This document shows positions 23,039 to 49,087 of a stretch of DNA of 64,000 bases, piece after piece (the first letter of the stretch is position 1; each line of letters begins with the position of its first letter). The stretch lies in the NCBI GenBank assembly GCA_965373035.1, contig CBDVEP010000001.1, positions 272 through 64,271 of the forward strand. The letters run 5' to 3'. This stretch comes from an uncultured bacterium. Its GTDB lineage: Bacteria; Spirochaetota; JAHITG01. The notes under the pieces were generated by a model, which saw only the letters and a program-made list of their open reading frames with translations, was not told the DNA's origin and searched no databases. Made by a program: the position numbers and the translations under genes.

Positions 23039-23057
23039 TTGCACTAAATTTATGCAA
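23039..23057. promoter_or_regulatory. Candidate enhancer/UAS palindrome TTGCA-N9-TGCAA about 90 bp upstream of the amtB sigma-54 promoter
   Basis: TTGCACTAAATTTATGCAA. The same arms and spacing recur upstream of nifH. Confidence 0.4.
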
Positions 23058-23489
23058 GTTTATAATATTTTTAAAATCCGCATAATTAATATGCAATTTT
23101 TATATACACTATCCTCCACATTTTACAATAAAATTTATAAAATTAAACAAATTTAGTAACTTTCAGCAGAATATATTTTGGAATTAATCCTTCAGGATTT
23201 CATTACTTTAAAAATGAAACATGAGCAAGCCATTTCATCCCAAGAAGAGGTAGTATATACTCAAAAAATTTTACAAAGATAAAAAGCTTCCTTGATATAA
23301 GGAAATTATAATATATATTTGTCTTTAGGTGAAAGAAACTATGAAAGCAATATTTGAACAGTTAATTGTAGATTTTCATGGGTCTAAAATTCCACAGCCT
23401 AGTAAAAGAGAATTAACTCTTCTGTCTCTACCTATTTTAAACAAATGATATCAGGACATTTTTTATATTTATCTTATTCTTTTTATTTC

Positions 23490-23925
23490 TCATTTCCATG
23501 GTCCATGAGCTTTCCATGTTTCGTTAAACTTATAATCCTTCTTGATTGCATCAAGTGGCTTAATAAGAAACCTTTCTATCTCCTTTGCTGTAGTAGACAA
23601 CTTTTCAGGTGCATGTTTAATATCTCCCTTTTTCAAAAATGCATTCCAAAGTATTTGGCGATCCGATTTTTCATCATAGATTTCTTCAGCAAATAATGGG
23701 CTATCCTGCGGAAAAGGAGTCTTACGATGCTTAAAAGTTCTTCTTAACGCTTCGGCAAGTTGAAATCCATTAAAATTGAACTGGCGCATCATTAGCCATA
23801 TATCATAGAAATCTTTCCATACCATAATACTGCAGAATTTCTGAAAATGAACGATTAGTTTCTTTAGCTTTATTTTGGAGCCGGGCTCGTACAGAAGCTT
23901 GTAAATTCTTGATATCTTTTTTCAT
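23490..23925 (-). pseudogene. Degraded AbiEii toxin gene (N-terminal 40 codons, stop, then C-terminal 111-codon ORF in another frame)
   Basis: MKKDIKNLQASVRARLQNKAKETNRSFSEILQYYGMERFL* starts at 23925, overlapping the AbiEi stop. An AbiEii C-terminal-like ORF 23490..23825 follows. Confidence 0.5.
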
Positions 23926-24524
23926 AGCATAGTCTCAAGTATTGGTTTTATGATATTATCAACACGGCAAATCTTGGCATATTGCATTATTTCTTTTGGT
24001 TTTACATTCTTTTCCGTAACAGCTACTTTAAGAGCTTCCCGTATAATGTTCATCCCGAGTTTATTACGGAATTTAAAACAATCCGCAATCGTCTTGGCAA
24101 GATTATAAACCTTGATTTTATAACCTTCTATTTTGTGTTCTTCAATTCCAGCCTCCCATGGTTTAGGACCAAAACGGTAAAATCTAACTGGAGGATATTT
24201 GATTCTATAAGCATGAGTACCCCGTGGAATAGCTATGTCCACATACTTAGGGATTTCAGTTGTTGCCTCATGAAAAGAAAGAGCAGAGAGAAGACAGATA
24301 ACTCCCCGGGGAGCCTGAAAAGATACAGCAACAAGGTCAGGATGGATCCCGGCAGTATAATTAGTCAGCTTGTAAAGTCCCCTGGCAATCTTTTCAACTT
24401 TCTTCTCTTTCTCAAGAGTGTTAAGTGAATCGGGATGAAATCCAGCTTTTAGAATAGCTGAAAACCTGACCACTCCGCCATTACTCTGGAAAAAATTTAT
24501 AAGTCCTTGTGTTTTTCTTTGCAT
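23922..24524 (-). CDS. AbiEi-family antitoxin domain protein (probable start at internal Met; long ORF extends to 24656)
   Basis: RGLYKL.. wHTH-like N-terminus from MQRKTQGLINFFQSNGGVVRFSAIL. Directly upstream of the AbiEii remnant. Confidence 0.5.
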   Translation of the reverse strand: MQRKTQGLINFFQSNGGVVRFSAILKAGFHPDSLNTLEKEKKVEKIARGLYKLTNYTAGIHPDLVAVSFQAPRGVICLLSALSFHEATTEIPKYVDIAIPRGTHAYRIKYPPVRFYRFGPKPWEAGIEEHKIEGYKIKVYNLAKTIADCFKFRNKLGMNIIREALKVAVTEKNVKPKEIMQYAKICRVDNIIKPILETML

Positions 24525-24771
24525 ACTGCCTCCGTATAATATTGTAACATTTATGAATAAGTATATATAATTTATACGAAAATGTAAAATATTTTTTTTA
24601 AACGTCAAATTCAGGGTTTCTTGAATCTCGTAATGCGAAAAAATTTTATCCGTCAATAAGCTTTTACCCTATCGGGTATCTGTGATCTATCATAAGTGTG
24701 AAATAAACTATTTACAGAAACAGGTGTAGAAGTAAGCTTTCCACCTTATAATAAAACAATGTAAATTTAAA

Positions 24772-24805
24772 TTGACTTTTTAAAATTACATGGTATAATT
24801 ATTAT
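24772..24805 (+). promoter_or_regulatory. Strong sigma-70 promoter with extended -10 placed for a leaderless transcript of the DUF4143 ATPase gene
   Basis: TTGACT (24772-24777), 16-nt spacer, TGgTATAAT (-10 at 24794-24799). ATG at 24806 is 7 nt after the -10. No SD. Confidence 0.55.
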
Positions 24806-26047
24806 ATGAATTATATTATAAGACAATTAGAAACTAAACTAATGCAGTATATTAAACAGTTTCCAATAGTTGTACTTACTGGTGCGAGACAATCAGGTAA
24901 ATCAACTTTATTAAAGCATTTATTCAGTAGTGATGACTGGGAATATATTAACTTAGATCAACGCGGGATATTAGAACAAATTAATTCTGATCCAGATTTA
25001 TTTATAAAGGATATTCGATCAAATATTATTATTGATGAAGCACAAAAATCTCCAAATTTATTTCATTCAATTAAATGGAAAATTGATGAAGGAATGAAGT
25101 ATAAAATAATCTTATCCGGATCAGCTAATTTTCACTTACTTCAAAAAGTAACTGAAACTTTAGCTGGTCGTGCCGGAATTTTGGAATTATATCCTTTATC
25201 TTTAAGTGAAAAACATAAACAGCATAATCTATTAGATTTACTTATAAATACTAATAATATTAATGAATTAAAAAACAAATTAAAGAAGATTAATCTTGTA
25301 AAAGATGATGATATATTTCTATATATACTTTGGGGTGGTTATCCAAAATTACTTGAGTATAAAAATTCAGAATTTAAGCTGAACTGGTTTGAAAATTATC
25401 GTACAACTTATATAGAAAGGGATTTAAGAGATTTAGCTCAAATAGCTGATCTAAGTGATTTTCAGCGTTTTTATCAATTGTTAGCCTTTCAAACCGGGAA
25501 TATATTAAATCTTTCCAATATAGCTAATGAAATAGGTATTACGGTACCTACATGTAAAAAATACATGCAAATTTTAGAATTATCATATCAATACTTTTTA
25601 CTAAAGCCTTATTATTCAAATATTAGAAAAAGATTAATTAAGTCTCCAAAAATTTACTGTATGGATACAGGTTTATGTAATTTTTTTCTAGAAAATAGTT
25701 CGCGTAAATTATTAATGAATTCCAGTAAATTAGGTAATTTGTTTGAAAATAGTGTAATTGTGGATATTATGAAACAAAATAGTTTTTTAAATAAAAAATG
25801 TAATATGTATTATTGGAGAACTTCAAATGGAACTGAGATTGATCTTGTAATTGAGCATGGTGAAAATCTTATACCAATTGAAATTAAATCCAGTATAAAA
25901 ATTTCATCTGTTTCAATAAGAGGTCTAACTGATTTTTTAGTATTAAAAATAAATAAAAAAATACCTTATGGAATAGTAATATATCGTGGAGACAGAGTTT
26001 CACAAATTTCAGATAAAATATTAGCTGTACCAATTGGTTATTTATAA
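24806..26047 (+). CDS. AAA ATPase (AAA_14 + DUF4143 family), second paralog
   Basis: Walker A TGARQSGKSTL. Same architecture as 10529..11854. Confidence 0.75.
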   Translation: MNYIIRQLETKLMQYIKQFPIVVLTGARQSGKSTLLKHLFSSDDWEYINLDQRGILEQINSDPDLFIKDIRSNIIIDEAQKSPNLFHSIKWKIDEGMKYKIILSGSANFHLLQKVTETLAGRAGILELYPLSLSEKHKQHNLLDLLINTNNINELKNKLKKINLVKDDDIFLYILWGGYPKLLEYKNSEFKLNWFENYRTTYIERDLRDLAQIADLSDFQRFYQLLAFQTGNILNLSNIANEIGITVPTCKKYMQILELSYQYFLLKPYYSNIRKRLIKSPKIYCMDTGLCNFFLENSSRKLLMNSSKLGNLFENSVIVDIMKQNSFLNKKCNMYYWRTSNGTEIDLVIEHGENLIPIEIKSSIKISSVSIRGLTDFLVLKINKKIPYGIVIYRGDRVSQISDKILAVPIGYL

Positions 26048-26169
26048 TAAAAACAGAGAAAAATAATAGCAATTTGCTTATTAAAAAATTATAGCTATTT
26101 AATTTAAAAAATGTATTTTATAATAACACAATTATAATATAGTAATTTTGCATTAATAAGGAGGCGTTT

Positions 26170-48020: not shown

Positions 48021-48045
48021 AATATATCCTCCATTTTATAATTTT

Positions 48046-48870
48046 TTAGTTTGCAATACCAAAGTCTATAAGAAGTTTTTCAAGCTCTTCCATTTGTATT
48101 GGTTTTGGGATTACAAACATTTTATTTTCGTCCATCTTTTTTGCAAGAGCTCTATATTCATCTGCCTGGGGATGTTTAGGTTCATACTCAATTACAGTCT
48201 TTCTGTTTATTTCTGCTCTCTGGACAACTTTTTCTCTTGGGACAAAGTATATCATTTGAGTTCCCAGTTTTTTTGCCAGCTCTGTAATCATCTCTTGTTC
48301 ATTGTCAACCTGACGGCTGTTACAGATAAGTCCGCCAAGTCTTACACCGCCTGAATCAGCAAATTTAACAATACCTTTACAGATATTGTTTGCAGCATAC
48401 ATTGCCATCATTTCACCGGATACAACAATGTAGATCTCCCGTGCTTTTCCTTCCCGCATAGGCATGGCAAATCCGCCGCATACAACATCACCAAGAACAT
48501 CATAAAAAGCATAATCAATTTCATACTTATCATCATAAGCACCAAGTTGTTCAAGAAGATTAATAGCGGTTATAATGCCCCTGCCTGCACATCCGACGCC
48601 AGGTTCAGGTCCGCCTGATTCAACACATCTGGTCTTTCCATATCCTTCTTTAATGACTTCTTCAATATCAATATCTTCACCTTCTTCCCGAAGAGTATCA
48701 AGAACTGTTGTTTGAGCAAGACCACCAAGAAGAAGACGTGTAGAGTCTGCCTTAGGGTCACAACCCACAACCATAATCTTCTTGTCCATTTCAGTAAGTC
48801 CTGCTACAATATTTTGGGTCGTAGTTGACTTACCTATTCCACCTTTTCCATAAATTGCTATTTTTCTCAT
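48046..48870 (-). CDS. nifH: Nitrogenase iron protein NifH (start taken at [11 protein letters not shown]; track ORF extends to 48921)
   Basis: Walker [10 protein letters not shown], Switch motifs, Cys ligands (..CAGRG.., ..VCGGF..). SD AAGGAGG 7 nt upstream of the chosen ATG. Confidence 0.9.
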
Positions 48871-48913
48871 TTTAGCCTCCTTAATTTTAAAATTAATCAT
48901 TAAACAATTTTTA

Positions 48914-48968
48914 AATATCAATCCAGTTTTTGATATTTAAAAAAAATTCGCAAGTCATAACTTGCGAA
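48914..48968. promoter_or_regulatory. Two palindromes in the nifH leader: ATATCAA-N8-TTGATAT and TTCGCAAGT-N5-ACTTGCGAA
   Basis: 48914-48935 and 48947-48968, between the sigma-54 -12 element and the nifH SD. Confidence 0.4.
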
Positions 48969-48985
48969 CTTTCAAATATTATAAA

Positions 48986-49000
48986 GCAATTACTATGCCA
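48986..49000 (-). promoter_or_regulatory. Sigma-54 promoter of the nif operon
   Basis: Minus-strand TGGCAT-AGTAA-TTGCT. Flanks TATGACTTGGCA..TTGCTTTATAAT shared with the amtB promoter. Confidence 0.65.
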
Positions 49001-49068
49001 AGTCATATTTTATAATTTGTTTATAATTAAATGATTATAGAAAAGATATTTATGTAGAAATGATGTTG

Positions 49069-49087
49069 TTGCACAATATTAGTGCAA
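49069..49087. promoter_or_regulatory. Candidate enhancer/UAS palindrome TTGCA-N9-TGCAA upstream of the nifH sigma-54 promoter
   Basis: TTGCACAATATTAGTGCAA about 70-90 bp upstream of the -24 element. Confidence 0.4.

Follow-up and report, generated by a model that had tools for sequence, protein, structure and literature searches.

A 64-kb stretch of DNA (31% GC) from an uncultured Spirochaetota bacterium (contig CBDVEP010000001.1), hereafter the window, to which all in-window counts refer, carries the palindrome TTGCA-N9-TGCAA upstream of sigma-54 promoters of nitrogen genes. We propose that this palindrome belongs to a set of paired NtrC-type enhancer sites found at the nif cluster, at glnA and at the porin-amtB-glnK operon, and that these sites are read by the sigma-54 activator with two GAF domains that is encoded next to glnA. 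We assign this reading a probability of about three in four. Judged by its sequence, the palindrome is no new kind of site but the classical NtrC box in an AT-rich form.

In a pattern search, TGGCA-N6-TTGC was matched perfectly by three sigma-54 promoters, each on the minus strand (Table 1). The sites quoted in the initial annotation, TTGCACTAAATTTATGCAA for the porin-amtB-glnK operon, TTGCACAATATTAGTGCAA for nifH and TTGCACAAATTTCAGTCAT for glnA, were confirmed at their coordinates, and the search also bore out that the first two have identical arms and spacing upstream of their promoters. Exact TTGCA-N9-TGCAA occurs twice in the window against 0.21 matches expected from dinucleotide-preserving shuffles (n = 100), and two matches were reached in 1 of 100 shuffles. 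Each of the two palindromes precedes a perfect sigma-54 promoter of the minus strand by about 77 bp. Their upstream placement held, but the distances first given, ~90 bp for amtB and ~75 bp for nifH, had to be revised to 76 and 78 bp, measured from the dyad centre to the TGG of the -24 element, so the geometry of the two promoters is the same. When up to two mismatches were allowed we counted 38 matches against 55 expected; such a search loses the signal, so that the motif carries information only when matched exactly or scored by matrix.

Alignment of the three upstream regions revealed that each promoter carries two dyads of 17–19 bp, 39–40 bp apart. The common order is distal dyad, 39–40 bp, proximal dyad, an AT-rich block and finally CTTGGCA-N6-TTGCTTTA. 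Start sites were estimated, not mapped, as lying 12 nt downstream of the C in the -12 GC, and the dyad centres in Table 1 are counted from there. Distal dyads usually combine one intact half (TGCAT) with one weakened half (TGAAY or CCGCA). At glnA the proximal site had been described as matching in one arm only, which proved correct, and its degenerate half (TGACT) recurs in two loci of related genomes (L161 and L168, see below).

Table 1. Sigma-54 promoters, paired dyads and associated genes in the window. Centres are relative to the estimated start sites; scores are those of the dyad matrix.
Feature	Sequence	Coordinates	Strand	Centre	Remarks
Sigma-54 -24/-12 promoter, porin-amtB-glnK	TGGCACGTTGTTTGC	22958..22972	-		pattern search
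TorF-like porin, amtB, glnK		22757..22080, 22005..20635, 20617..20276	-		driven by the promoter at 22958..22972
AT-rich block, porin-amtB-glnK		22973-23038			alignments
Proximal dyad (UAS1, upstream activator sequence), porin-amtB-glnK	TTGCACTAAATTTATGCAA	23039..23057		~-102	score 20.9, second best in window; identical in L161
Distal dyad (UAS2), porin-amtB-glnK	CCGCATAATTAATATGCAA	23078..23096		~-141	39 bp from UAS1; score 16.0; conserved in L161, L001
Sigma-54 promoter, glnA	TGGCACATCTTTTGC	29148..29162	-		pattern search
glnA		29087..27675	-		downstream of the promoter at 29148..29162
AT-rich block, glnA		29163-29228			alignments
Proximal dyad, glnA	TTGCACAAATTTCAGTCAT	29229..29247		~-102	score 16.3; intact half GTGCAA (promoter strand), degenerate half ATGACT
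Distal dyad, glnA	ATGCATAATTTTTATTCAT	29269..29287		~-142	score 19.8
Sigma-70-like promoter, activator gene	TTGACA-N16-TATATT (11/12)	29295..29322	+		consensus match only
Activator, 679 aa, GAF-GAF-AAA+ (sigma-54 interaction)-HTH_8		29353..31392	+		divergent from glnA
Sigma-54 promoter, nif cluster	TGGCATAGTAATTGC	48986..49000	-		pattern search
nif cluster: nifH, nifI1, nifI2, nifD, nifK, nifE, nifN, radical-SAM/NifB-like gene, ABC transporter, GNAT		nifH 48870..48046, cluster to ~36040	-
AT-rich block, nifH (UAS1 to -24)	YTATAAT and AATTATAAA	49001..49068	-		conserved in alignments
Proximal dyad, nifH	TTGCACAATATTAGTGCAA (TGCAC-N7-GTGCA)	49069..49087		~-104	score 22.7, best in window
Distal dyad, nifH	ATGCATAATTAATGTTCAT	49108..49126		~-143	score 19.1; 100% conserved in L171/L172

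The six dyads also stand out in a scan with a symmetric matrix, which was built from 14 sites, all in other genomes and none from the window. They rank first to sixth with scores of 22.7 to 16.0, followed by a seventh match at 13.5, and shuffles yielded 0.09 matches at a score of 16.0 or above. A lower intergenic match at 33504-33524 (score 11.1), upstream of a gene with a Glu_synthase domain, lacks a sigma-54 promoter and was not retained. For the enrichment analysis, the window was combined with seven orthologue loci (163 kb in total) and upstream zones were defined as -30 to -220 of sigma-54 promoters. Thirteen of the 17 dyads of the form GCAY-N7-RTGC fall in these zones, which cover 1.75% of the sequence (binomial P ~3e-20). 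In the negative control, which took in 2 Mb from 152 loci with unrelated sigma-54 activators, one of 104 such dyads did. A palindrome that is frequent in AT-rich intergenic DNA and indifferent to promoters would have counted against the regulatory idea; the exact count, the matrix ranking, the 13/17 enrichment and the negative control all point the other way.

The same figures weigh on the simplest alternative, namely AT-rich palindromes that arose by chance, or else RNA hairpins or terminator elements, in either case with no regulatory role. It could draw on the base composition of the window and on a terminator scan that flagged 49069-49087 on the plus strand. However, exact matches exceed expectation, the six best matrix matches are all at promoters, and the enrichment is strong; moreover, the arms are kept around a variable spacer, also in genomes of 45–53% GC. 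The hairpins that the dyads could form are weak, with 5-bp stems, 7–9 nt loops and energies of -1.8 to -6.4 kcal/mol. No plus-strand gene ends at the flagged site, and the terminator reading was rejected on account of the weak stems, the lack of a convergent gene end and the lack of an upstream plus-strand gene at 49069-49087. Already contradicted by these results, the alternative is scarcely credible.

Having collected 28 sites (56 halves), we derived the half-site wwTGCAYAA, in which G is invariant (56/56) and A (53/56), T (47/56) and C (42/56) are strongly preferred. At the C, the third base, the remaining halves have A (13/56) or T (1/56). Intact GCA/TGC arms are present on both sides in 14 of the 28 sites and on at least one side in all 28, and the strong sites all read TGCA-N9-TGCA. 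The NtrC box of E. coli is the 17-bp TGCACCAnnnTGGTGCA, and its best-conserved part was defined by genomic systematic evolution of ligands by exponential enrichment as GCAnnA...TnnTGC (PMC8743547; see also PMC4987338). Both boxes are 17-bp dyads with TGCA arms, a 9-nt spacer and this core; the A equivalent to the inner position of GCAnnA is found in 40 of 56 halves here. What differs is the inner CC/GG of the enteric box (TGCACC...GGTGCA), which is replaced by A/T: of the 56 halves, 42 have A at half-site position 6 and one has C. The statement that the palindrome differs from the NtrC site was therefore wrong, for arms, spacing and inner A/T match the E. coli box. The proposal of a distinct recognition sequence for the double-GAF activator survives in one part, as an enhancer for that activator is still the best explanation, but since arms and spacing are those of the NtrC box the sequence itself is not distinct; what differs is the likely reader.

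The layout is familiar as well. The enteric glnAp2 promoter has two strong NtrC enhancers upstream of its -24/-12 element, centred at -140 and -108 (PMC5159524), compared with about -142 and -102 in the window, and the site separation is 32 bp there and 39–40 bp here. The regulons of both systems include glnA and amtB-glnK. On the other hand, the likely reader in the window carries a pair of GAF domains in place of a receiver and is not a two-component response regulator, and nifH would be controlled directly, with no separate NifA tier.

NifA offers another comparison, being a GAF-containing sigma-54 activator that acts upstream of nifH. The palindrome was correctly said to differ from the classical NifA site: TGT-N10-ACA has no match in the three upstream regions, and its 13 matches in the window compare with 21.6 in shuffles. 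A NifA upstream activator sequence was rejected for the lack of this motif in the three regions. The activator in the window further differs from NifA by its two GAF domains, and its predicted regulon covers general nitrogen assimilation, not nif alone.

Nitrogen regulators outside the enhancer-binding class were also considered. The box of GlnR and TnrA is a 17-bp TGTNA-N7-TNACA that overlaps sigma-A promoters. If the dyads bound a regulator of this type, as a repressor or co-regulator, the common 17-bp geometry and nitrogen-assimilation regulon would be accounted for, as would the distal glnA dyad, which abuts the sigma-70-like promoter of the activator gene. Against this, the third half-site base is C in most halves and T in one of 56, and the pairs sit at about -100 and -140, 100–140 bp upstream of sigma-54 promoters and in fixed phase, which is enhancer rather than operator geometry. 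No gene for such a regulator is present in the window or the related loci, and we regard this explanation as very unlikely.

Turning to the enhancer reading and its candidate protein, the activator divergent from glnA is the only sigma-54 activator encoded among the window genes. Its best NCBIfam match is NifA (TIGR01817) at 472.8 bits, below the cutoff of 528.85; this match consists of two stretches, of which the best one is reported, and is not used to argue that the helix-turn-helix is unlike that of NifA. Automated annotation names the homologues 'Nif-specific regulatory protein', and for this protein family the 'NifA' label is probably misleading. The best match of the helix-turn-helix (EASQFLGIHRNTLREKIK) in the Protein Data Bank is Fis (E = 2e-5). 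Compared with what we take to be the recognition region of NtrC, it is identical at 10 of 18 residues, including RNTL, so that the recognition helices appear similar. In Leptospira, two-GAF homologues (P0106 and P0114) are ~41% identical to the activator. Leptospira EbpA, described in a review, reportedly binds upstream of amtB and is needed for its sigma-54-dependent transcription (PMC12655853). Both organisms belong to the phylum Spirochaetota and both proteins are GAF-GAF-AAA+-HTH activators, with a sigma-54-dependent amtB target in Leptospira and a sigma-54 amtB promoter carrying dyads here, although the EbpA regulon as described has no confirmed nif or glnA members.

The activator gene may itself be part of the circuit. 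Its sigma-70-like promoter has its -35 element 8 bp from the distal glnA dyad, and the same arrangement is found in a related locus with 62% activator identity (L001, 5284-5311, plus strand), where a sigma-70-like promoter lies beside the distal dyad; across the two loci the promoter reads TTGACA-N16-TATATT or TATTAT (11/12) and the separation is 5–8 bp. By analogy with NtrC at glnA, this suggests possible autoregulation.

To follow the sites in other genomes, contigs were compared around orthologues retrieved in a protein search with the activator, at 92, 81, 77, 75, 72, 62, 57 and 49% identity. The nearest genomes are from uncultured Spirochaetota, with Brevinematales metagenome-assembled genomes at 44–47% identity and an unclassified one, STB_17, at 62%. 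Orthologues with paired dyads at sigma-54 promoters span 49–92% identity and 29–53% GC. In close loci the dyads keep their places at 76–78 and 115–117 bp from the sigma-54 TGG. For example, they lie at 76 and 115 bp at the porin-amtB promoter of L161 (92%), which also has a glnA promoter of this type, and at 76 and 116 bp at the porin-amtB promoter of L001 (45% GC). Similarly, the dyads at the glnA promoter of L162 (81%) align with those of the window. At the nifH promoter of the 92% relative (L171/L172), which has the same spacing, the distal dyad is exact, while the proximal dyad retains its arms and has a changed spacer and flanks; the alignment collapses directly upstream of the distal dyad. 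L165 (77%) has dyads 76–77 and 117 bp from the TGG at two promoters, those of a GAF-ANTAR gene and a [2Fe-2S] ferredoxin gene; this arrangement of paired dyads, sigma-54 promoter and gene is at 3342-4274 and 6273-6732, and the ferredoxin is thioredoxin-like. Paired dyads persist at other distances from the promoter in three more distant loci. L167 (62%, 53% GC) has two TGCACAAT-N5-GTTCAT sites 40 bp apart, L168 (57%) has two sites 40 bp apart that lie farther upstream of a PPDK-gltB-gltD operon, and L169 (49%, 51% GC) has GCAC-N7-GTGC pairs upstream of GSIII and amtB. In all of these except the nifH contigs, as in the window, the activator gene adjoins a target promoter (window, L161, L162, L001, L167, L165, L168 and L169), and the gene lists of P0010 and P0011 likewise place it beside one. 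The loci L163/L164 (72%) and L166 (75%) are uninformative, with no dyad-bearing sigma-54 promoter beside the activator. When metagenomes were scanned with the activator, nearly all matches were to distant AAA+ proteins, apart from one full-length match at 45% (L081).

A role of the palindrome as an upstream activator sequence is thus supported by its fixed position relative to -24/-12, by arms that are conserved while spacer and flanks diverge, and by linkage to sigma-54 promoters beside the activator gene. Based on this linkage in at least eight loci, on the clade specificity of the sites, on the NtrC/Fis-like helix-turn-helix and on Leptospira EbpA, we infer that the adjacent GAF-GAF activator is the reader.

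Several points weigh against this assignment, which for this organism is drawn from linkage and from analogy. A canonical NtrC with a receiver domain would recognize just such a motif, and our view is limited to 64 kb of the genome. The sites could then be genuine enhancers read by a two-component NtrC (receiver-AAA+-HTH) encoded elsewhere, with the GAF-GAF activator binding another sequence or working in another way. Arms, spacing and inner A/T equal to the enteric box, together with the glnAp2-like pairing, fit this alternative, and pathogenic Leptospira do have an NtrC-like EbpB besides EbpA; saprophytic Leptospira, however, are reported to have EbpA only (PMC12655853). Nor is there a receiver-type activator in the window or among the called genes of the at least eight loci, in genomes of 29–53% GC, where paired dyads accompany the GAF-GAF activator gene, and no enrichment is seen in the 152 control loci, many of which harbor receiver-type activators. 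With a helix-turn-helix of NtrC/Fis type in the activator itself, we judge a separate NtrC to be improbable, yet the strongest competitor. That similarity discriminates weakly, since recognition helices of the RNTL type are widespread in enhancer-binding proteins. The separation of 39–40 bp corresponds to integral helical turns only if the repeat is ~10 bp, and glnAp2 has 32 bp. Furthermore, the motif is not constant across the whole protein family. Two Brevinematales loci at 44–45% identity, L005 (~7978) and L081 (~1686, minus strand), carry upstream elements of the form TGAW-N9-WTCA instead: a conserved pair, TGATTAAATAATACTCA and TGAACAAAATATAATCA, precedes TGGTAC-N5-TTGCA promoters with the same 17-bp geometry and TGAW/WTCA arms. 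These elements suggest a drift of specificity within the family. L003 has no evident matching dyad. At the Leptospira ebpA locus (L170), a weak sigma-54-like match was the only one found, and no dyad was detected.

For the bound protein, hexamer nucleation, looping and signal we infer the following scheme for the double-GAF activator. Its dimers would bind both 17-bp dyads, at about -102 and -142 with the half-site wwTGCAYAA, through the Fis/NtrC-like helix-turn-helix, and the two bound dimers would nucleate an active AAA+ hexamer. The conserved AT-rich DNA, possibly with an architectural protein, would allow looping to the closed complex of the sigma-54 holoenzyme at -24/-12, where ATP hydrolysis would open the promoter. 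Activity would be gated by the GAF domains according to nitrogen status, through a ligand such as 2-oxoglutarate and/or PII proteins and not through phosphorylation. The AT-rich block between the proximal dyad and the -24 element is a candidate bending or architectural-protein region. An exact match resembling a site for integration host factor, WATCAANNNNTTR (TATCAAATAATTA), is present in the block at glnA only, and the idea of such a site is only partly supported by the sequences, the conserved part being YTATAAT...AATTATAAA.

A further layer of control may operate on the nifH transcript. The nifH ATG is placed at 48870, as NifH has 274 aa in database proteins of the same contig and of relatives and an AAGGAGG ribosome-binding site precedes this codon; the start of the longest open reading frame (TTG at 48921, 291 aa) is probably wrong. 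The leader 48870-48974 folds at -26.2 kcal/mol (z = -4.56). Right after the estimated start, at 48937-48971 on the minus strand, it contains a terminator-like hairpin, GAAAGUUCGCAAGU-UAUG-ACUUGCGAAUUU, followed by a U-run and then by another hairpin, AAAUAUCAA...UUGAUAUUU. L171/L172 preserve the two structures, with a single change that is compatible with G.U pairing. The terminator-like hairpin, which a pattern scan for terminators did not call, could act as an attenuator or 5' stabilizer. In Geobacter, one enhancer-binding protein of the GnfL/GnfM system activates nifH, glnB-type and assimilation genes through two upstream sites, the footprint at gnfK spans -131 to -91, and ANTAR-mediated antitermination forms a second layer (PMC2995071). 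GnfM is a phosphorylated response regulator, unlike the protein considered here, but the ANTAR layer has a parallel in the GAF-ANTAR gene that lies under the same upstream activator sequence in L165 and in the terminator-like nifH leader, which hints at an antitermination layer like that of Geobacter GnfK/GnfR. The window yielded no ANTAR gene.

Other leaders and neighboring genes were inspected as well. The leader of the porin-amtB-glnK operon (22757-22946, minus strand) is unusually long at ~190 nt; its fold is not significant (z = -1.7), and an Rfam search of the window, this leader included, gave no matches. In the glnA leader, TAGACA-N18-TATAAT (11/12) is found at 29103-29132 on the minus strand, downstream of the sigma-54 promoter and overlapping a small hairpin. 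It might be a constitutive glnA promoter, although sigma-70-like matches around this leader are no more numerous than in shuffles. From the enhancer sites of the amtB operon to the 3' end of glnA (~23200-27650), the window contains a truncated AbiEii gene, an AbiEi-like gene, a DUF4143/AAA_14 ATPase gene and small open reading frames. L161, the 92% relative, lacks this stretch and has its porin-amtB sites ~150 bp from the end of glnA. The stretch is probably an insertion of defense or mobile genes. More AbiEii and DUF4143 copies are found at 8100-8807, 10529-11854 and 16660-17469. Finally, a GAF-containing phosphoenolpyruvate-utilizing enzyme I of the PtsP/EI-Ntr type is encoded at 58657-60915 on the plus strand, and a nitrogen phosphotransferase branch may also be present in this organism.

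How Spirochaetota regulate nitrogen fixation is essentially uncharacterized. The main value of the present analysis is a correction, in that the recognition sequence turns out not to be new; the architecture is ordinary in kind, an NtrC-type upstream activator sequence, and its interest lies in the likely one-component double-GAF reader and in direct nif control in a spirochaete lineage. In function the activator seems to correspond to NtrC, though equipped with another sensor module, and the NtrC-type recognition code is apparently not confined to the two-component regulators of Proteobacteria but reaches well beyond them. At even odds, in our estimate, the activator has in this clade of Brevinematales-like genomes and relatives replaced the roles that NtrB/NtrC and NifA share in Proteobacteria, keeping the NtrC-type code and sensing nitrogen through GAF domains. 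Its direct targets would be nitrogenase, glutamine synthetase, ammonium transport, glutamate synthase and the GAF-ANTAR antiterminator, with the nifH leader as a checkpoint at the RNA level. A cis-regulatory code, consisting of wwTGCAYAA dyads in pairs spaced by about 40 bp in front of -24/-12 promoters, is now available along with a named candidate master regulator, and together the two allow nitrogen regulons to be predicted in uncultured spirochaete genomes.

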